Source: a phage. Taken from it: 44,007 bases of DNA. Location of the stretch: the sequence record PX907401.1. One strand, 5' to 3'. The translations under genes and the position numbers were made by a program. Shown in pieces: positions 1 through 44,007 of the stretch (position 1 is its first letter; the number at the start of each line of letters is the position of its first letter). The notes beneath the pieces are model-generated. The model had not been told where the DNA came from. It searched no databases and was given only the letters and a program-made list of their open reading frames with translations.

Positions 1-70
1 ATTACGGCATCGTTGCCGTGTCCAATGCCTTTTTTCGACAGGCGGGCTTTCCGCATATAAACATTGCGTA
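1..70. repeat. Terminal direct repeat, identical to 43938-44007 (circular closure overlap or terminal redundancy)
   Basis: 70/70 identity between the two window ends, read directly from the sequence. Confidence 0.9.
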
Positions 71-168
71 GGGCAATACCGTATTTCTTCGCAATATCTT
101 TAACCGTAGTCCCTGCCTGAATTTCTGCGATCAATTGCTCATCGGTAATTTTAGTTTGCGGGTGCATA
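1..168 (-). CDS. N-terminal segment (HTH-like) of the wrap-around metallophosphoesterase gene; continues at 42962-44007 on the circular map
   Basis: ATG at 168 in frame with the M at 43993 (= position 56); translation MHPQTKITDEQLIAEIQAGTTVKDIAKKYGIALRNVYMRKARL...; AGGA about 10 nt upstream. Confidence 0.5.
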
Positions 169-188
169 TTTAATTAATTCCTGATTAG

Positions 189-214
189 TGGACCGTGGAC
201 AATATACCACGGTC
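189..214. promoter_or_regulatory. Perfect 9-bp inverted repeat GGACCGTGG-N8-CCACGGTCC (candidate operator or hairpin) upstream of the phosphoesterase gene
   Basis: Palindrome arms read directly; spacer acaatata. Confidence 0.3.
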
Positions 215-296
215 CGTATGGCGGCGGGCGATATCAATTCGCAAATATCTTTACGTGCCATCTTGATTACTCCTCCAGTTGATTGGTTGCGAGTCA

Positions 297-2645: not shown

Positions 2646-2915
2646 TCATCTGCTCAGTCTCCAGTGTTTGCCTACCCGCTCAATGGCGGGCTTCCGGCGT
2701 AATGTAATACGGATCCCCATTGGTTGCAAGGAAGTCCGCACCCTGAAATCGTGTTGTGCTGCGAACTGGTGCAGGTAGCGAGTCTGCGTCAACGGCTTAA
2801 CGTCATCGCGATAACACCAGAATACAGAATCCCCCGCATTCGCATTCTCAGCCCATATTCGTATGCAATGCAGGGGGATATGCCACGAAAGCTGTTTTGC
2901 TCGTCTACGGCCCAT
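2646..2915 (-). CDS. Hypothetical protein (89 aa)
   Basis: ORF packed 10 nt after the upstream gene; no recognisable motif. Confidence 0.4.
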   Translation of the reverse strand: MGRRRAKQLSWHIPLHCIRIWAENANAGDSVFWCYRDDVKPLTQTRYLHQFAAQHDFRVRTSLQPMGIRITLRRKPAIERVGKHWRLSR

Positions 2916-2924
2916 TTTGGCCCC

Positions 2925-3251
2925 TTATTTCGCAAGCTGGGCGAATAGTTCGCGCTGGGCTTTAATCCGGGCGACGTTTGTCACTGCCGTCTCGCCGATA
3001 CCGAAGCGATACGCCAGGCGCTCACGGGCAAATGCGAGCGCGTAGTCCTGGATAGCGTTTGCGAGTGGCTGGATCTCCGCCATCGTGTCGAATCGGTCCT
3101 CCAGCATACAGGCGATGGCCTGCTGCGTGACGCGGACAACGGACCACGCTGCCGATAGTCTTTCGACCGCTTCCGCTCCTTCACTGGCGAACTCCGCCGC
3201 TTCTTGCGCCGCCGCCATAGCCATTGCGTAATTCCAGATTAATGCTCTCAT
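2925..3251 (-). CDS. Hypothetical alpha-helical protein (108 aa), first gene of the minus-strand operon
   Basis: ATG at 3251 with GAGGA upstream; promoter-like element just upstream. Confidence 0.55.
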   Translation of the reverse strand: MRALIWNYAMAMAAAQEAAEFASEGAEAVERLSAAWSVVRVTQQAIACMLEDRFDTMAEIQPLANAIQDYALAFARERLAYRFGIGETAVTNVARIKAQRELFAQLAK

Positions 3252-3279
3252 CGTTCAGTCCTCATGTTGGTGTGCGACC

Positions 3280-3308
3280 AATATAGCCGGGTGCTGGGCT
3301 GAATGCAA
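3280..3308 (-). promoter_or_regulatory. Sigma70-like promoter on the minus strand (-35 TTGCAT, 17-bp spacer, -10 TATATT) carrying the ATTGGTTGCAT motif
   Basis: Minus-strand reading ATTGGTTGCATtcagcccagcacccggcTATATT; about 25 nt upstream of the ATG at 3251. Confidence 0.5.
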
Positions 3309-3449
3309 CCAATATTAATCACGCGCATGAAAAAGTTGATCGCTATCAGCTGTGACTGCATTTTTCACTACGCATAATGCATTGGTTGCCGAGTTCATCC
3401 GCGACCGCACTTCGCATCATGCTGCCGTGTATTTTGCGATCCACGGATT

Positions 3450-3623
3450 TTATTCAGTCTCAGACGAGGGGGGCCGTTGACCCCCGTCTAGTCTGAAAGA
3501 CTGGGGTTTGTCCCGCCTGTCCCGCTCCTCTGGAAGCCGCGCCATCCGGGGCGGGACGGGGGTGCTGTCCCGCTTTGTCCCGCCCCTTGTTTGTCCCGCT
3601 TTCTGTCCCGCTTACTTTATGCA
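3450..3623. repeat. Dispersed repeat element, copy A (about 174 bp; second copy at 31279-31452)
   Basis: Near-identical 5' 75 bp and 3' 48 bp shared with copy B; contains six direct TGTCCCGC heptamers plus one inverted, and hairpin-capable segments. Confidence 0.85.
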
Positions 3624-3696
3624 GTTTTATTGCATAACTATTCATTACAGCTACACGACACGGCAACCAATACGACCAGTTAAAAACGCCCAAAAT

Positions 3697-3836
3697 GGCA
3701 ACCAATGCGCGCAAAATTTAACCTTTTAGCGATATGGGAATTCCCATATCGGCAACCAATGCGCGCAAAATTTAACCTTTTAGCGATATGGGAATTCCCA
3801 TATTGGCAACCAATGCGCGCAAAATTTAATCTTTTA
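3697..3836. repeat. Tandem direct repeat, 54-bp unit x about 2.6, each unit with a perfect 18-bp palindrome ATATGGGAATTCCCATAT and a GCAACCAAT motif
   Basis: Units at 3697-3750, 3751-3804 and partial 3805-3836; palindromes at 3732-3749 and 3786-3803; overlaps the primase stop codon (3826-3828). Confidence 0.9.
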
Positions 3837-6090
3837 AATCATCATCGGTCGCTGAAAGCGTGATGGGTATGTTCGTTTTGATGACGATATTAGACGACCC
3901 ATAGATGGCCCCGGTGTGTGGGTCTGTGTAAAACCCAAGCACGCCGCGCTCGACCATATCGTCTATTGCCTTCGTCGATGTGCCACCTTTTGCCAATCCC
4001 GCCTGGCGGACGATTGCCGATTTACTGAATCCGGTATGGTCCGGGTTATCTTCCATCAGTTTTTCCAGTGCCGCATAAAGCACTTTCTCTTTTTCGTTGC
4101 GCGGTCCGGCGGCATTCTCTTCCTTAACTGCGGCTTTGCCAGCGGCCTTTGCTTGCTCAATGGCGAACGGTGCCAGGGCGACCGGTACGAGATAAAGAGT
4201 CTCGTCGCGTGGCGTGGATGCAATTGGCTTGACGTCCCAACCGGCAACCACGTCGCCGAAGTCAGGCCCGGTGCTGGTGGACTGGTGTGATTCGAACGCT
4301 TCGGACTTGCGGAGATCCACCTTAACCTTGCACTTGAGCAGGACGAAGCCGCGCGGCGCTTGCTTGATGCCGTTACGTGCCTTTTCGTGATACAGGTTCA
4401 ATTGGCCCGGCTGATTGTCGTCCGGTTGCTCCAGGAAGAACGCAGAATCGACAGCGCCATGCAGCGCGCCGGACCCACGGGGAGATCTGCTGCCGTTTGC
4501 ACCCTTCGCCGGGTGGTGGATGACGCCCGCACTGCCGCCTGTATTTTCCGCAATGGCCTTCAGCGCTTTGACCACTTCACCCATATCGCTGGCGTTGTTC
4601 TCGTCGAACGGTTTTGCATTGGCGGACCGCAGCGCAACAGTCTGGTTGAGTGAGTCGAACGCCACCAGGCCAACCGGTTCGCCGTTAGCGGTGCGGTTGA
4701 TGAAGCTGATAACTTCGCGCAAGCCGGACTTGTTGGTGATATCCCAGCCGCGTGACTGCAGATCGATAATGTGCAGCTTGTCGAGGTCGTGCTCATATTT
4801 AATCTGCAATGCTTCTTTGCGCTGGTTAGAGGCTTCACCACCTTCCGCATCGAAATAGAAGCAATGAGACTGGACGACCTTCGCACCGCCGAACGGAATA
4901 CCGGCGGCAACCGCGCCCATCTGCCCCAGCACATAGAAAGACTTACCAATGTTCGACTCGCCCGCCATATACCAGGTCGATTTGAAGTTAATCAACCCCT
5001 CGATAATCGGGTCGTGCTTACTGAACAGCGCAACCGGCTCGTTATCCAGATCCGCATCAGTACACACGCCGTACTCGTCGCCGTCTCCGACCGCATCAAC
5101 GATATGTTCATAGCACGATTCCACTTCCTCATCGTCCAGTCCCGGAAGGATGGCGGCGATTTGCTTACGTGACATGTTGTGCGGCTCGACGTTCAGGTGG
5201 TCCGGGATCCCGATAAGACGTAGCGCCAGGTGCTGGTGTCTGTTCAGTTCCGAGCAACACTCGTTGCCGGTGTGCATACACTTGAAACGGATCTCGCCAT
5301 CCTTAACCATGATAGCGGTTGACCCTTCGCCACTATGCAGATGTTCGTTCGGGCATGGCACTTCATAACCCCGACCGGACGACAGCGGTTCGAATCCTGC
5401 CTGGAAGCACCAGTCCAGAATGCCGTCCGCCACGCCGTCATCGCCCTGGGTTAGTTCGCGGCGTACTTTCTCTTTTTCCACTCCCAGCTTATCAGCCAGG
5501 CGAAGCAGACGACGGACGCGGGCACGCTTGCCGTAGTGGCACTTAATAACGGACTGCTGGTGTGGCAGGTACATCAGGCGGTTTGTATCTTTCGTGCAAT
5601 CGTCGAAGTCCACATCTGACAGACCCAGTTGGTGTAATAGTGCATACTGGACGCGGCCCAGGTCTTCAGCCGGTACAGGCTTGTCAGTGAGCACCAGGAA
5701 ACGGGCGCAACGCGTGCCGCCCTTCAGCGGGTGGCGGTCGCCGGTGGTGGTGTGAAATACGTGTTCCAGACCCGAGTCGATGAACGCCTTACGGCAGCGG
5801 CGCAGGGTGCGGGTGTCGGTGCGGTCAATATCAAAGAACAGGATCGAGCGGTCCACCGCACTGGTCTTACGACGCAATCCGTCACTGGTATACGCCACGA
5901 TGCCATCGGCCTTACGCTTGCGGCGCGCATACTCGGCTTTATCTTCCGTCTTGTTGATATGCACCGAGGAGATTTCTTTCGCATCTTTGATAAATTCGAA
6001 AAACTCATCGGTCGTCATCTGGAAGTTTTCCGCCCTGGCTTTTTCGCCTTTTTTAGCGGGTTTTGTTACAGCGAATTTAATCAAGCTCAT
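3826..6090 (-). CDS. Bifunctional DNA primase/helicase (primase-like N-terminal domain, P-loop ATPase C-terminal domain)
   Basis: 754 aa; FFDIDRTD acidic motif in the N-terminal domain; Walker A GESNIGKS and Walker B-like VAFDSL in the C-terminal domain. Confidence 0.8.
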   Translation of the reverse strand: MSLIKFAVTKPAKKGEKARAENFQMTTDEFFEFIKDAKEISSVHINKTEDKAEYARRKRKADGIVAYTSDGLRRKTSAVDRSILFFDIDRTDTRTLRRCRKAFIDSGLEHVFHTTTGDRHPLKGGTRCARFLVLTDKPVPAEDLGRVQYALLHQLGLSDVDFDDCTKDTNRLMYLPHQQSVIKCHYGKRARVRRLLRLADKLGVEKEKVRRELTQGDDGVADGILDWCFQAGFEPLSSGRGYEVPCPNEHLHSGEGSTAIMVKDGEIRFKCMHTGNECCSELNRHQHLALRLIGIPDHLNVEPHNMSRKQIAAILPGLDDEEVESCYEHIVDAVGDGDEYGVCTDADLDNEPVALFSKHDPIIEGLINFKSTWYMAGESNIGKSFYVLGQMGAVAAGIPFGGAKVVQSHCFYFDAEGGEASNQRKEALQIKYEHDLDKLHIIDLQSRGWDITNKSGLREVISFINRTANGEPVGLVAFDSLNQTVALRSANAKPFDENNASDMGEVVKALKAIAENTGGSAGVIHHPAKGANGSRSPRGSGALHGAVDSAFFLEQPDDNQPGQLNLYHEKARNGIKQAPRGFVLLKCKVKVDLRKSEAFESHQSTSTGPDFGDVVAGWDVKPIASTPRDETLYLVPVALAPFAIEQAKAAGKAAVKEENAAGPRNEKEKVLYAALEKLMEDNPDHTGFSKSAIVRQAGLAKGGTSTKAIDDMVERGVLGFYTDPHTGAIYGSSNIVIKTNIPITLSATDDDLKD

Positions 6091-6100
6091 TGTCGTGGCC

Positions 6101-6430
6101 TTACTTAGAAGTTTTATTATTGCGTACCCAGGAGCGCACTGTGCTCTGATTAATTCCGGTCAACTCGGCAATCATCGCCCAAGATTTGCCCTCGGCGCGC
6201 AAACGGATAACCTGCTTTTTGTATTCTTCCATTTCTTCATTGTGTTTTTGCAGCTTGCTTGCTGCTGTACCGTTGAGCAATTCCAGCCTGGAGCGTAATT
6301 CTTTTTCGACACTGCGCAGTCGTTCGATTTCAAATAACACCACCCCCACGGCATCGGTATAAGCCCATGACCGGCTTGTCTCACTGCAAACAGTCTTCGT
6401 TAACATTTCGATTGCGTCGTTTACATTCAT
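6101..6430 (-). CDS. Small DNA-binding protein with C-terminal helix-turn-helix (putative transcriptional regulator)
   Basis: 109 aa; coiled-coil-like N-terminus; C-terminal KSWAMIAELTGINQSTVRSWVRN resembles an HTH; GAGGG 8 nt upstream of the ATG. Confidence 0.6.
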   Translation of the reverse strand: MNVNDAIEMLTKTVCSETSRSWAYTDAVGVVLFEIERLRSVEKELRSRLELLNGTAASKLQKHNEEMEEYKKQVIRLRAEGKSWAMIAELTGINQSTVRSWVRNNKTSK

Positions 6431-10281: not shown

Positions 10282-10452
10282 ATGCGTATTAAAGCCAGCG
10301 AAGTAAAAGTCGGAATGCAAGTATGGTCCAAGCTACTGGGGGAATATTTCACAGTTGCCGAGATTCGCAACAACGGCGAAGAAATCGCCCTGTCCGACGG
10401 CATCTTCTCCATGATCGGCAGCAATGACGCCGTAGTGAGGATAAAGCAATGA
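10282..10452 (+). CDS. Small hypothetical protein (56 aa), translationally coupled to the polymerase (ATGA overlap)
   Basis: MRIKASEVKVGMQVWSKLLGEYFTVAEIRNNGEEIALSDGIFSMIGSNDAVVRIKQ; its stop overlaps the polymerase ATG at 10449. Confidence 0.5.
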   Translation: MRIKASEVKVGMQVWSKLLGEYFTVAEIRNNGEEIALSDGIFSMIGSNDAVVRIKQ

Positions 10453-13400
10453 AAGACTTCGAACGCCTGTTTCTCGACACCGAGACATTTAGCGGGGTGG
10501 ACCTGAAGAAAGTTGGGGCGTACGCCTACGCAGAGCACCCAACCACCGAGATTATGATTTGCACATACGCCATCGACGAGGGCCGCGTGCAGACATGGGA
10601 TTGCACTGAATCCCCCACAATGCCGCGTGAACTGCGCAAAGCGATCCGCCATGTATCCCGCAAGAAAGCAAAAATCGTGATGGCTAACGGCCTCCTGTTT
10701 GACCGCCTGGTTATTCGCGAGAAGTGGGGTATTGACCTGCCGGTAAGCCAGATCGAAGACACCATGATTATGGCCTTTCGCCACGCGCTGCCGGGTAGCC
10801 TCGATATGCAGTGCCAGGTGCTGGGCGTTGACGCAGAGCACGCGAAGGATAAGGCAGGCAAGGCGCTGATTAAACGATTCTGTAAGCCTACCCCTAAGAC
10901 CTACAAAATACGCCGCTACACTCGCGAGACTCACCCGGAAGAATGGGCCAAATTTCTGCGCTATGCCGCGCTGGATATTATCGCAATGCGTGAAGTCTAC
11001 TGGCGCATACCGGACTGGGGTAATACTCCGAAGGAAGATGAAATCCTACTTATCGACCAGTTGATCAACGACCGCGGCTTCTATGTGGACGTTGACCTGG
11101 CGAACGCCGCGATCAAAGCGGTGCAGGCGCATAAGGAAGAATTGAAGGAAGAAGCCTGGGAGCGATTTGGCGGTAAGCTGACCGGCAATGACTTCCTGCC
11201 AATCCTGCGTGATATCGCCCCGGCGTTCACGATCCACAACGCGCAGAAATCCACACTTAACGACCTACTGGAAGACCCGGACTTCCCGGACGAGGGCAAA
11301 GCGCTTATCGAAATGCGCCTCGGTGCGTCATCAACGGCATCTACTAAATACAATCCGCTTGTCAATGGCCTGTCCGCCGATGGTCGCCGCCGTGGTTGTC
11401 TTCAGTATGGTGGGGCAAAGCGCACGCTACGCTGGGCCGGTAAAGGCTTTCAACCTCAAAACCTGGCGCGTGGCGAGTACAGCGACGACCACGAAGGGAA
11501 GATTAAACGCCGCGAGGGTGAAAGCGACGTCTCGTTTTGGGTCCGGTCGCACATGCTCACCAACGGCATCAACTCCCTGTTACGCGGGACCGCACACTGG
11601 GCGTATGACATATCGAAGCTAACGGCCTCGACCGTTCGCGGGTGCATTATTCCGGCGAAGGGCAAGAAGTTTGTCGTAGCGGACTACTCCAACGTGGAAG
11701 GGCGTGGACTTGCCTGGATCGCTGGCGAGAAAACAGCGTTAATGGTCTTTAAGGCCGGTCGCGATATCTATTGCGAGACTGCCGGTAAGATGTTCGGCCT
11801 GGACCCGGACTACATTAAAGCCAACCGCAAGGACTTACGCCAGATCGGTAAGGCTTGCTTGCACCGCCATACCCAAGTATTGACCAATGGCGGGTTCAAG
11901 GATATTATGGCCGTAACATCAACGGATAAAGTATGGAACGGCGAAAAATGGGTGAGTACAAAAGGCGCGCACCTTATGGGGTGGAAACCAGTGATAGACG
12001 TGGACGGGGTCTTGATGACAGAAGACCACAAAATCTTGACGCATTCATGGAAGGAGGCAAGGCAACTCGTTTCAGACAGGTGCACGATGGCCCGCGCCCT
12101 GGCGAGAGGTATGGACGCCTGGTTATCCTGCGCGAATTACCAAAACGACAGGGGCACAGACAACTGCTGGCTCAATGTGATTGCGGAGCGATGCCAGGAC
12201 GCGTCGGGTATGACAACGTCCGAAGGGGTAAAACATCCCAATGCAACCTCTGCGCAATTGAAGCGACAAAGCGGTATCGTAAACAGTATTTTTGCTACGA
12301 TGACGCAATGCCAGACGATGCGCACAGAACGCGGCTGCTCAACCGGCTGTCCGCGGCAATATCACGAACGACAAACCCCCGCGCCAAAGGGTATAAAAAC
12401 TATGGCGGTCGTGGGATTGCCGTATGTGACGAATGGAAAAGAGATAAAAGGTCGTTTCTTCGCTACGTTCAAACGCTGGACGGCTGGGATAATCCAGACT
12501 TCGAAATGGACCGGGTCGATACAGACGGCAACTATGAGCCTGGAAACCTTCGGTTTGTCAGCCGTTCGGAAAACTGCCGTAACCGGCGCAGCGTGCCCGA
12601 GCTTCAGCGAAAGTGCGATGAAGCCCTTACCCGCATTGCTGAACTGGAACGGGAAGTTAACCTATTGCGAGCCGGTTTACGACCTGATTGATGTGGAAGA
12701 CGGAAACCGGTTCCTTATTGCGTCTAAGTCTGGTTTTCTGGTGGCGCATAACTGCGAGCTAGGCTTGGGCTATGGTGGCGGCGTGGCAGCGTTCTTGCAG
12801 TTCGCTAAAAACCTGGGCCTCGACCTGTACACTATGGCGGACGTGATGAAAGGCACGTTCCCGGATCACATTTGGGCGGCGGCGAAACGCGGCTATGAGT
12901 ACGCCCGCATTAACGAAGCGAAACGCCCACCGAAGCCTGGCAAGAAGGACGAGCGACCGACTTACATACTGCCGAAAAACGTATGGCTGACGTGCGACGC
13001 GATCAAACGTATGTGGCGAGAGGCCCACCCGAAGACGGTTGCCTTTTGGGCCGAGCTTGAGGACGCGGTGTTGTGTGCAATCCGCAATCCGGGCAAAGCA
13101 TACTGGGCTGGCGCGAACGTTCGCCCGGATGGCAAGAAAGCGCTCAAGATTGTTCGCACGAAGGCGAAGCACGACCCAACCTTCGACGAGGAGCGCGACG
13201 ACCCGGACGCTGCGGGGTGGTGGTTGAAAATTGAGTTGCCGTCGGGGCGCATCATGAGCTACCCCGGCATCGCGCTGTCTGTCACGACAGAGATTGACGA
13301 GGACACCGGCAAGAAGCGCACCAGCACACGCATTAAATATCAGGGCGAGAATCAGACGACGCGCCAGTGGGGGTTCCAGTACACCTACGGCGGCAAACTG

Positions 13401-13637
13401 ACGGAGAACATCGTACAGGCGTTGTGCCGTGATATTCTCGCATGGTCCATGCCGGGCGTCGAAGCCGCGGGGTATGAAATAGTCCTGTCAGTACACGATG
13501 AACTGATCACCGAAGTGCCCGACACAGACGACTACACGACAGAGGAGCTTTGCGCGCTGATGTGCGACCTGCCTGTTTGGGCGAAAGGCTTCCCACTTGC
13601 CGCCGAAGGTGATTGTATGTATCGCTACCGCAAGTAG
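10449..13637 (+). CDS. Family-A (Pol I-like) DNA polymerase with 3'-5' exonuclease domain, interrupted in motif B by an intein
   Basis: 1062-codon uninterrupted ORF; Exo I LFLDTETFS; motif A VVADYSNVEGRG; motif B RQIGKA / CELGLGYGG split by a 299-codon insert; motif C VHDE. Confidence 0.9.
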   Translation: MKDFERLFLDTETFSGVDLKKVGAYAYAEHPTTEIMICTYAIDEGRVQTWDCTESPTMPRELRKAIRHVSRKKAKIVMANGLLFDRLVIREKWGIDLPVSQIEDTMIMAFRHALPGSLDMQCQVLGVDAEHAKDKAGKALIKRFCKPTPKTYKIRRYTRETHPEEWAKFLRYAALDIIAMREVYWRIPDWGNTPKEDEILLIDQLINDRGFYVDVDLANAAIKAVQAHKEELKEEAWERFGGKLTGNDFLPILRDIAPAFTIHNAQKSTLNDLLEDPDFPDEGKALIEMRLGASSTASTKYNPLVNGLSADGRRRGCLQYGGAKRTLRWAGKGFQPQNLARGEYSDDHEGKIKRREGESDVSFWVRSHMLTNGINSLLRGTAHWAYDISKLTASTVRGCIIPAKGKKFVVADYSNVEGRGLAWIAGEKTALMVFKAGRDIYCETAGKMFGLDPDYIKANRKDLRQIGKACLHRHTQVLTNGGFKDIMAVTSTDKVWNGEKWVSTKGAHLMGWKPVIDVDGVLMTEDHKILTHSWKEARQLVSDRCTMARALARGMDAWLSCANYQNDRGTDNCWLNVIAERCQDASGMTTSEGVKHPNATSAQLKRQSGIVNSIFATMTQCQTMRTERGCSTGCPRQYHERQTPAPKGIKTMAVVGLPYVTNGKEIKGRFFATFKRWTAGIIQTSKWTGSIQTATMSLETFGLSAVRKTAVTGAACPSFSESAMKPLPALLNWNGKLTYCEPVYDLIDVEDGNRFLIASKSGFLVAHNCELGLGYGGGVAAFLQFAKNLGLDLYTMADVMKGTFPDHIWAAAKRGYEYARINEAKRPPKPGKKDERPTYILPKNVWLTCDAIKRMWREAHPKTVAFWAELEDAVLCAIRNPGKAYWAGANVRPDGKKALKIVRTKAKHDPTFDEERDDPDAAGWWLKIELPSGRIMSYPGIALSVTTEIDEDTGKKRTSTRIKYQGENQTTRQWGFQYTYGGKLTENIVQALCRDILAWSMPGVEAAGYEIVLSVHDELITEVPDTDDYTTEELCALMCDLPVWAKGFPLAAEGDCMYRYRK
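11856..12752 (+). other. Intein (protein-splicing element) within DNA polymerase motif B
   Basis: Starts with Cys (CLHRHTQVLTNGGFKDI), TxxH-like block (EDHKILTHSW), ends VYDLIDVEDGNRFLIASKSGFLVAHN followed by +1 Cys; flanks reconstitute the RxxxKxxxFGxxYG motif. Confidence 0.75.
11933..12691 (+). CDS. HNH-type (HNH_3/AP2-like) homing-endonuclease-like ORF in the -1 frame, entirely inside the intein
   Basis: 252-codon ORF; GERYGRLVIL...CDCG...QCNLC (Zn-ribbon-like) and GYKNYGGRGIAVCDEW...DRVDTDGNYEPGNLRFVSRSENCRNRR; the overlapping polymerase frame is also open throughout. Confidence 0.55.
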   Translation: MERRKMGEYKRRAPYGVETSDRRGRGLDDRRPQNLDAFMEGGKATRFRQVHDGPRPGERYGRLVILRELPKRQGHRQLLAQCDCGAMPGRVGYDNVRRGKTSQCNLCAIEATKRYRKQYFCYDDAMPDDAHRTRLLNRLSAAISRTTNPRAKGYKNYGGRGIAVCDEWKRDKRSFLRYVQTLDGWDNPDFEMDRVDTDGNYEPGNLRFVSRSENCRNRRSVPELQRKCDEALTRIAELEREVNLLRAGLRPD

Positions 13638-31278: not shown

Positions 31279-31452
31279 TTATTCAGTCTCAGACGAGGGG
31301 GGCCGTTGACCCCCGTCTAGTCTGAAAGACTGGGCTTTGTCCCGCTTGTCCCGATCGGCTGAAAACCGCGGCAGCACTGGCGGGGATGGGGTGCTGTCCC
31401 GCTTTGTCCCGCCCCCTGTTTGTCCCGCTTTCTGTCCCGTTTGGTTTATGCA
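31279..31452. repeat. Dispersed repeat element, copy B (see 3450-3623)
   Basis: Same orientation as copy A; lies in the intergenic gap between the GT stop (31512) and the tape-measure start (31215). Confidence 0.85.
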
Positions 31453-42961: not shown

Positions 42962-44007
42962 TCATTTCAACATTTCCGGGCTAATGGTTAAGCGCGCTAC
43001 TTCGCCGTAGTTGGCGCTATAGGTGATGACGTTTGCGCTGCGACCTGACATCCAACCGCCACGACTGGCGTAGGCGTCTTTCGCTGCGAGCGTCCTGTGC
43101 TGTTCAACAATCATGTTGCGGGATTCAACAATCTTCTGGTGGTGCAAATGGCCTACGTGCGCGTAGCTGTATTCGCTCGACCCGAAAGCCTGTCTGAATT
43201 TAGCGATCATAACCTGCTCGATAACATCGAATCGCGCTTTGTGCCCGTGGTGGAAAAATAGTGTGGTCTTACCGTGCTGCACCATTTTGTAGACGTCCGG
43301 GGACGTATCCACATCGACGCGCGGCTCGTTCTCGTACAGCGTGTTGAACATCTCAGCAAGCCAAATCATGCCCGACTCGTCATGATTCCCCTGGACGATT
43401 AGCAGTTTGACTTTGTGGTGTTTTTGCAGCGCCAGTTCGACGACGTTGCGCACCATGCGAATCATGTAGCGGACCAACTTCTGGTATCGGGTGTCGGCGT
43501 CCAGTATGTGACCACTTGCCGGAGTGACAGCATCGAGGCTATCAAAGTGGGCCATATCACCGAGGATATTAATTACGGCAGTGCCTGCGTCCGGGGCGCG
43601 GGCGAAGGCTTCGACAAACCAGCGGTAAAACAGGTCTTCGGCAATCGCCATATCCCAGTCTTCGCCAGTCTCCTCGCCCCAGGCCAACATGCCCAGGTGG
43701 AAGTCTGACACAGTGTACAGGTTGAGTAGGTCGAGCGCCTGGATCGGGACTGGCGGGGCGCTTACTGGTGCTGCCGGTGTGATTTCGCTGTTCATGCCCT
43801 CGACAACAGCGCGCATGGCTTCAAGCTGGCGCTCCTTGTCCTGCTCAGTGATAACCCACGACATGACCTCTTCGCCATTTCCGCGCACCAGGGCCGATAC
43901 GCGCTTAACCCCAAACCCATCGGCAACGCGCTTGCGTATTACGGCATCGTTGCCGTGTCCAATGCCTTTTTTCGACAGGCGGGCTTTCCGCATATAAACA
44001 TTGCGTA
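42962..44007 (-). CDS. Calcineurin-like metallophosphoesterase, truncated by the window edge (N-terminal HTH segment is at 1-168)
   Basis: Motifs SDFHLG, GDMAHFD, GNHDE, GHLHH read in the translation; the ORF runs into the terminal repeat. Confidence 0.75.
   Translation of the reverse strand, partial: RNVYMRKARLSKKGIGHGNDAVIRKRVADGFGVKRVSALVRGNGEEVMSWVITEQDKERQLEAMRAVVEGMNSEITPAAPVSAPPVPIQALDLLNLYTVSDFHLGMLAWGEETGEDWDMAIAEDLFYRWFVEAFARAPDAGTAVINILGDMAHFDSLDAVTPASGHILDADTRYQKLVRYMIRMVRNVVELALQKHHKVKLLIVQGNHDESGMIWLAEMFNTLYENEPRVDVDTSPDVYKMVQHGKTTLFFHHGHKARFDVIEQVMIAKFRQAFGSSEYSYAHVGHLHHQKIVESRNMIVEQHRTLAAKDAYASRGGWMSGRSANVITYSANYGEVARLTISPEMLK
43938..44007. repeat. Terminal direct repeat, identical to 1-70
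   Basis: Same 70-nt string as the window start. Confidence 0.9.

Follow-up and report, generated by a model that had tools for sequence, protein, structure and literature searches.

Satellite phage P4 has a two-part origin of replication, ori/crr, bound by its primase-helicase, the alpha protein. BstA, an abortive-infection protein encoded by prophages, stops the replication of phage DNA, and every bstA locus carries "aba", a DNA-based anti-BstA element that silences the locus's own BstA (Owen et al. 2021, PMC8585504). The aba element is effective on replicating or high-copy DNA and confers immunity when put into phage P22; it has been mapped for BTP1 only, where it occupies 63 bp at the gene's start, is non-palindromic and has terminal CCCGCC direct repeats, the elements of the E. 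coli and Klebsiella homologues being unmapped (PMC8585504). It has been described as homologue-specific (cognate) and as not seen in virulent phages, and the mechanism by which it silences BstA was posed as an open question (PMC8585504).

The 44,007-nucleotide stretch of phage DNA analysed here in full (the window) is a Dhillonvirus, an HK578/SO-1-like coliphage, with an array of 54-bp tandem repeats at the end of its helicase-primase gene. The 1-kb stretch around the array is matched at 80-95% identity by 159 phage records, nearly all of them from Escherichia phages of the genus Dhillonvirus, with the types HK578, SO-1 and slur05 among them, and the proteins of slur05 map onto the window as a complete, circularly permuted genome. 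The exonuclease gene is divided between the two ends of the window (3-167 and 42965-44005) with overlapping matches, indicating a circularly permuted or terminally redundant whole-genome assembly. The DNA polymerase ORF (10449-13637) is continuous, 1062 amino acids long and about 300 amino acids longer than that of slur05; its in-frame insert (11948-12651), which has neither an Rfam intron match nor a Pfam match, is possibly an intein, and SO-1 is annotated at this gene with an intron and an HNH endonuclease.

The tandem array and the control region around it

Tandem Repeats Finder, the check proposed in the earlier note, places the array at 3697-3836 with a period of 54, 2.6 copies, 97% matches, no indels and a score of 266, and a second repeat search returned three 54-nt copies spaced 54/54, bearing out the roughly 2.6 contiguous copies that the note had described. 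Each full unit consists of a GGCAACCAAT box, GCGCGCAAAATTTAACCTTTTAG and one palindrome. The 18-bp palindrome ATATGGGAATTCCCATAT occurs exactly twice in the window (3732-3749 and 3786-3803), with no further site there at up to three mismatches (0.03 expected from shuffles). These are the perfect palindromes already reported, of which the first extends to a perfect 22-bp dyad, CGATATGGGAATTCCCATATCG (3730-3751), identical to an element in BstA-family genes; in the second (CGATATGGGAATTCCCATATTG, 3784-3805) the 18 bp at 3786-3803 are perfect and one outer pair is unsymmetrical. They lie 54 bp apart, about 5.1 helical turns, as had been noticed, and neither they nor the array as a whole have a strand. 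The three GGCAACCAAT boxes of the array (3698-3706, 3752-3760 and 3806-3814) are on the plus strand, the minus strand reading ATTGGTTGCC, and GCAACCAAT, the motif said to accompany each unit, is present in all three (3698, 3752 and 3806).

The replicative helicase-primase gene (3826-6090, minus strand) encodes 754 amino acids with a Pfam AAA_25 domain, a match to phrog_3228 (E = 0) and 98% identity to the slur05 protein. Its last codons and its stop codon (3826-3828) lie in the last partial unit, confirming the overlap that had been claimed, and the array units repeat the final codons of the gene. The next minus-strand gene is at 2925-3251, which leaves 574 bp (3252-3825) non-coding. Directly upstream of the primase gene is a gene for a 109-amino-acid helix-turn-helix protein (6101-6430, minus strand) resembling sigma-70 region 4 or HTH_23; its database labels are "transposase" or "nuclease inhibitor gamma". 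A 52-amino-acid ORF runs across the array on the plus strand (3705-3863) with an 18-amino-acid peptide repeated, because 54 is divisible by 3; it matches no family and is probably spurious. A sequencing or cloning artefact is ruled out for the palindromic element, which is in frame in conserved ORFs elsewhere and which dozens of independent phage genomes have at this locus.

Between the array and gene 2925-3251 is a set of features that are more origin-like than the array itself. A G+C-rich hairpin, CAGTCTCAGACGAGGGGGG...CCCCCGTCTAGTCTGAAAGACTG (3455-3504, no strand), whose counterpart in phage CS16 is annotated "terminator", stands at the edge of a cluster of seven TGTCCCGC repeats (3509-3611), six direct and one inverted (3551-3558), which are likely origin repeats (iterons). 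An A+T-rich stretch with a small inverted repeat, ATGCAGTTTTATTGCAT (3612-3652, no strand), separates these repeats from the boxes, of which the nearest, a plus-strand GGCAACCAAT box at 3663-3671, is conserved in all relatives and precedes the array by 35 bp; with an inverted, minus-strand box at 3381-3389 it brackets the TGTCCCGC block, the inverted arms being 12-14 nt long. The hairpin and TGTCCCGC block (about 185 bp) are duplicated almost exactly between tail genes at 31279-31450 (region A, no strand), where boxes and palindromes are absent. Both copies are conserved in Sodalis phage SO-1, whose record (NC_013600) annotates them as repeat regions A and B; as in the window, there is a block in the non-coding region downstream of the helicase-primase gene, and the depositors flagged direct, inverted and palindromic repeats resembling the second region, but SO-1 has no copy of the 54-bp palindrome unit.

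Region B is likely the origin of replication, with TGTCCCGC as its repeats. The 54-bp array has the anatomy of iterons, being made of direct repeats beside an A+T-rich region and an initiator gene, but neither the number nor the sequence of its units is conserved among close relatives, which have 0, 1, 2 or 5 of them, and the TGTCCCGC repeats fit the description of iterons better. The possible origin of the earlier note is supported in so far as the array lies in a non-coding region of origin-like anatomy, and not for the array itself, the conserved origin-type repeats being the other motif, TGTCCCGC. With a fused primase-helicase gene adjoining short direct repeats (region B) and a second cluster kilobases away (region A), the two regions resemble a bipartite origin such as P4 ori/crr, a likeness that concerns the TGTCCCGC block and not the 54-bp units. 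A PDB sequence search with the primase gave no match, either to P4 alpha or to any solved structure, and the AlphaFold single-sequence model of its C-terminal domain (pLDDT 37) was too poor for comparison with P4 alpha. GC skew, which tracks the direction of transcription, was uninformative as an origin marker, and a literature search on Dhillonvirus origins and promoters and on the SO-1 regions A and B found nothing relevant.

The GCAACCAAT motif has 16 exact copies in the window and 29 at up to one mismatch, against 12 expected, and its copies are nearly all intergenic though the genome is mostly coding. Instead of being specific to the array, it is a genome-wide box in promoter position, found outside the array at 282, 2719, 3305, 3381, 3663, 6619, 13923, 16865, 16882, 18543, 21076, 37080 and 37094. 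Read toward the downstream gene it is ATTGGTTGCA, which puts TTGCAx 16-18 nt upstream of a TATAnT hexamer (pairs at 3305/3274, 6619, 13923/13935, 16865/16882, 18543/18554, 21076 and 37080/37094). At the putative promoter of gene 2925-3251 (3280-3313, minus strand), predicted from its sequence, the TTGCAT comes from the box ATTGGTTGCAT and is separated from TATATT by a spacer of 17 nt. As a -35 element TTGCAx is poor, making an activator or sigma-like factor plausible; GCAACCAAT may therefore mark a phage-specific class of promoters dependent on such a factor, and the 109-amino-acid helix-turn-helix protein is a candidate for binding it. A GCAACCAAT box and a terminator-like hairpin precede a possible small gene of 36 amino acids (151-261, minus strand) with AGGAG before its start, in a gap of about 240 bp that is unannotated in slur05. 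The box subclass ATTGGTTGCC, found around the TGTCCCGC repeats and in the array, has no -10 element 16-18 nt downstream. A consensus scan of 2800-4000 found neither a sigma-70-like promoter nor a terminator, so the array dyads neither overlap nor flank a predicted promoter and the regulated promoter cluster that had been proposed falls away. The palindromes also lack the form of intrinsic terminators: CGCUAAAAGG comes next after the hairpin on the minus strand, and there is no U-tract.

These surroundings suit an explanation, in line with the earlier note, in which the units are origin-accessory or operator sites, where a dimeric protein of phage or host tunes the firing of the origin or shields it from primase read-through. 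The array adjoins the block of hairpin, TGTCCCGC repeats and A+T-rich DNA, which has inverted GGCAACCAAT boxes on its flanks and a second copy at 31.3 kb; a dimeric binder would suit both the symmetry of the dyad and a spacing of about five turns; and the palindrome and its flanks, where present, are usually 100% conserved over 34 nt. Such a role is nevertheless unlikely, since the palindrome is absent from about half of the close relatives and from region A, the numbers of units are interspersed on the tree of these phages, no dedicated phage protein has been identified and no promoter is predicted there, and the identity of the dyad to an element of unrelated prophages and of other phyla is left unexplained.

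Copy number of the unit among Dhillonviruses

The base state shared by relatives in IMG/VR and GenBank is one GGCAACCAATGCGCGCAAAATTTAATCTTT overlapping the primase stop codon. No palindrome unit is present in L005, L007, L008, L010, L011, L012, L015, HK578, SSL-2009a, JL1, YD-2008.s, SO-1 or EK99P-1; one is present in bob, slur05, L004, L009, L014 and most close relatives; two are present in the window and in PNS1; and Teewinot has 5.1 units of 53 bp, of which four of five are hybrids with a truncated right arm, the truncated units retaining only a 12-bp core. In bob and slur05 there are mutations in the palindrome arms. The record spans of about 492 (no copy), 547 (one copy) and 601 (the window, two copies) recur as the same three classes in the spread of 60 GenBank matches from which they were read. 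Of the 159 records, about 75 have the palindrome together with its flanks. A neighbour-joining tree built from the 800 bp of primase gene next to the array intersperses the unit states and does not pair the two genomes with two copies as sisters, which indicates recurrent gains and losses, as expected from unequal exchange between direct repeats of about 30 bp. The palindrome unit is a dispensable element of unstable copy number. The variation among relatives that the earlier note had proposed to look for is therefore real, and the absence or degeneracy in close relatives that the note had named as counting against its reading applies to an essential iteron or operator: the unit is missing from about half of them and degenerate or truncated in others. 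Phage bob (L001) has another tandem duplication, of 78 bp, in the C-terminal part of its helicase-primase gene (4636-4790), about 150 bp from the stop codon and annotated as a repeat region.

A history of this kind could also belong to functionless, unstable DNA, a palindrome fragment captured once, whose later gains and losses, through slippage or through unequal recombination between 30-bp direct repeats, would have been neutral for fitness. The range of 0 to 5 copies with independent gains and losses, the hybrid and truncated units of Teewinot, the arm mutations of bob and slur05, and the duplication of the last primase codons in the units, as in a simple local duplication, are all consistent with it. 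What makes it improbable is that the palindrome is intact in most of the roughly 75 carriers although the surrounding DNA is about 92% identical, that the captured 22-mer is no random sequence but the most constrained DNA element of a defence-gene family, and that many lineages of prophages have independently retained orphan copies.

The palindrome in prophages and in BstA-family genes

Beyond the Dhillonviruses, ATATGGGNNNNCCCATAT in viral contigs gives at least 61 matches with the central AATT, which is expected in 1 of 256, and most of these also have the outer C and G; they lie in about 14 unrelated contexts. Local alignment of the phage unit with the prophage contexts shows 22-26 nt in common, the palindrome alone, and any wider homology between them is excluded. 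One class of contexts consists of orphan non-coding copies in E. coli lambdoid prophages. Some of these are 50-85 nt upstream of hok/sok loci identified by Rfam sok matches (L025 2437-2678, L046 4766-5022 and L027 9665-9880, terminator-family copies included), and the hok/sok-side region is present in 3933 of 5426 complete E. coli genomes, in 667 of them with at least 80% coverage. In the other lambdoid family the layout is TACCATACAAGCG, the palindrome, CGAC..., and then an intrinsic terminator, with the hairpin after stop codons and about 10 nt before the canonical terminator GGCCTCTTCGGAGGCCTTTTT. No Rfam family was found in the window or overlapping the palindrome in the prophage loci, and a literature search on the palindrome sequence and on KilA-N palindromes found nothing relevant. 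A lead to a Roi-type site of phage HK022, reportedly in work by Clerget and Boccard in 1996, was rejected, the palindrome being absent from HK022 between 25 and 40.7 kb and the Roi protein not being of the KilA-N type considered below.

Hairpins near transcript ends raise the possibility of an RNA element, elsewhere 3' stem-loops being known to protect transcripts or to aid termination; here the primase mRNA would have at its 3' end a stable hairpin formed by the palindrome (a stem of 7-9 bp with a 4-nt loop), giving exonuclease protection or a contribution to termination. The array comes immediately after the primase stop codon, the lambdoid copies come after stop codons before the terminator or just upstream of hok/sok, variation is concentrated in the four central "loop" bases, and the 161-nt region folds better than shuffles (z = -3.56). 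Since the element is transcribed in every context, a role in RNA keeps some probability, but it is distinctly unlikely: there is no U-tract and the terminator scan was negative, no Rfam match was obtained, the arms are conserved in sequence and not in pairing alone (an unbiased lambdoid family has one-sided changes and no compensatory ones), the truncated units of Teewinot keep only the 12-bp core, and exact conservation inside coding regions across phyla is hard to reconcile with a generic hairpin.

The second class of contexts is coding. Here the palindrome encodes D-M-G-I-P-I-S at codons 59-65, within the KilA-N domain of a 257-amino-acid prophage protein that matches Pfam KilA-N (4e-27) and, through its C-terminal half, PADLOC BstA (3e-21), the same half being 31.7% identical to BstA of Salmonella phage BTP1; judged from these similarities the protein belongs to the BstA family. 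This particular BstA-like gene was found in 137 of 5426 complete E. coli genomes. When homologues were gathered by protein similarity, which leaves codon choice unbiased (80 loci, 28 of them unique, down to about 59% amino acid identity), the arm codons proved invariant among the 28 unique sequences (GAT in 27 of 27, CCC in 28 of 28, ATA in 27 of 27 and TCG in 25 of 25), while other Pro, Ile and Ser columns use 3-6 codons each. Codons within the motif have a mean entropy of 0.23 bits, those outside it 1.14 bits; synonymous variation is restricted to the central 4 nt (GGA/GGG, ATT/ATC), and the codon before the motif almost always ends in C, extending the symmetry to 22 bp. The rare codon choices are exactly those needed for the symmetry of the sequence. 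When 58 unique loci were compared from -200 to +800, the palindrome had the lowest entropy of all 21-nt windows, and conservation was lacking in the upstream DNA. The element in BstA-family genes is constrained at the DNA level, not at the protein level.

Some departures from the common sequence preserve its symmetry. One divergent homologue with E-T-G-I-P-A-S has a symmetric double change to CGGGAATTCCCG, and distant KilA-N genes with other residues have a dyad at the same position: a Planktothrix phage has CGATATCGGGAAGACGATATCG there and a Synechococcus phage has GCCGGAATCCCGGC. A scan for the 22-mer CGATATGGGRATYCCCATATCG in one genome per bacterial species found at least 80 loci against about 0.2 expected by chance, at local G+C contents of 0.29-0.65, in cyanobacteria, Bacteroidota, Bacillota, Proteobacteria, Spirochaetes, Chloroflexota, Verrucomicrobia and others. 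At least 35 of these, among the matches listed, are in KilA-N ORFs, and nine of ten KilA-N proteins chosen from different lineages match PADLOC BstA (1e-16 to 4e-22). The remaining loci are in short-ORF or non-coding contexts, which indicates that orphan copies exist in other phyla too; the orphan non-coding copies also group into separate families, for example in Saprospiraceae, Xenorhabdus and Enterobacter. That a coding region should contain one identical 22-nt sequence in different phyla, at G+C contents of 29% to 65%, needs explaining whatever the function of the phage copies.

Comparison with aba and other known systems

The identity of the phage palindrome to an element of BstA-family and prophage DNA points to a factor from outside the phage. 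The earlier note had proposed a site for a dimeric DNA-binding protein, and the palindrome does have the form of such a site. No KilA-N homologue is encoded in the window (among 582 fragments from six-frame translation the best E was 2.3, and the hhalign probability was 0.1), which means that any binder of KilA-N type must come from host prophages, and since the palindrome is identical to one in BstA-type genes it may be a stolen immunity or decoy site. Among the explanations considered, an aba-like binding or decoy array beside the origin accounts for most of the evidence, and from the sequence comparisons it is the reading to be preferred, though held at somewhat less than an even chance. 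The array would then be neither the phage's own origin repeats nor an operator, but a cluster of accessory 54-bp modules, prone to recombination, at the edge of region B, the probable origin, that is nearer to the primase gene. Each module would join one origin-type GGCAACCAAT box to an orphan 22-bp dyad, CGATATGGG-N4-CCCATATCG, to which a dimeric KilA-N/BstA-type protein from a resident prophage would bind; on the replicating phage genome the dyads would act like aba, titrating or switching off the replication-blocking protein, and unequal crossing-over between direct repeats of about 30 bp, GGCAACCAATGCGCGCAAAATTTAA, would shift the dose among 0, 1, 2 or 5 units.

The resemblance to aba is partial. 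Like aba, the element in its BstA-gene copies is a short DNA element embedded in a bstA coding region, lies within genes whose products are of that family, and is under nucleotide-level constraint (the 0.23 against 1.14 bits given above); the phage copies are set beside the probable origin and amplified in tandem, and aba is an element that acts on replicating or multicopy DNA. Unlike aba, the copies in the window are outside any bstA locus, there being no KilA-N or BstA homologue in any frame. The aba of BTP1 is 63 bp at the gene start, non-palindromic and without similarity to the palindrome, whereas the dyad here is 22 bp at codons 59-65, and at loci of the L103 type the gene start and upstream DNA are unconserved. 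The one mapped aba being unrelated and not palindromic is thus evidence against the aba-like reading. So is invariance across phyla, which is a misfit to a cognate, homologue-specific aba, and the selection exerted by a gene found in only 137 of 5426 E. coli genomes would be slight for an element that about half of the Dhillonviruses keep. The truncated arms in Teewinot and the arm mutations in bob and slur05 imply that selection on the full dyad in the phage is not strict.

A more specific and more doubtful version, tentatively drawn from the same comparisons, is that CGATATGGG-N4-CCCATATCG is the aba site of a pan-bacterial BstA subfamily, a self-immunity dyad that would be recognised by the KilA-N domain encoded by the dyad's own DNA, and that virulent Dhillonviruses and many lambdoid prophages have pirated it as orphans, the tandem copies beside the origin here serving for escape from BstA. 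If so, nature would provide an instance of the "exploitation" which, in the view of the authors of the BstA study, cognate specificity prevents. If the aba-like reading is right, a simple and universal DNA ligand would have been mapped for a large BstA subfamily, and a virulent phage would be using a non-coding DNA decoy, not a protein, as its anti-defence device. The natural variants with 0, 1, 2 and 5 units would make the idea directly testable. For annotation the gain is that the Dhillonvirus control region comprises three different repeat systems: origin-type repeats (TGTCCCGC), GCAACCAAT boxes and a palindrome module that is optional.

With plasmid and phage iterons and the operators of dimeric repressors, the array has in common that its sites are tandem, phased and dyad-symmetric in a non-coding control region; it differs from them in that iterons and operators are conserved and required, whereas the 54-bp units are missing from many near-identical genomes and overlap no predicted promoter. 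The array thus relates to known kinds, to unstable tandem arrays of binding sites and to DNA elements of the aba type, and what is unexpected in it is the identity of its palindrome to a dyad found in BstA genes across phyla.
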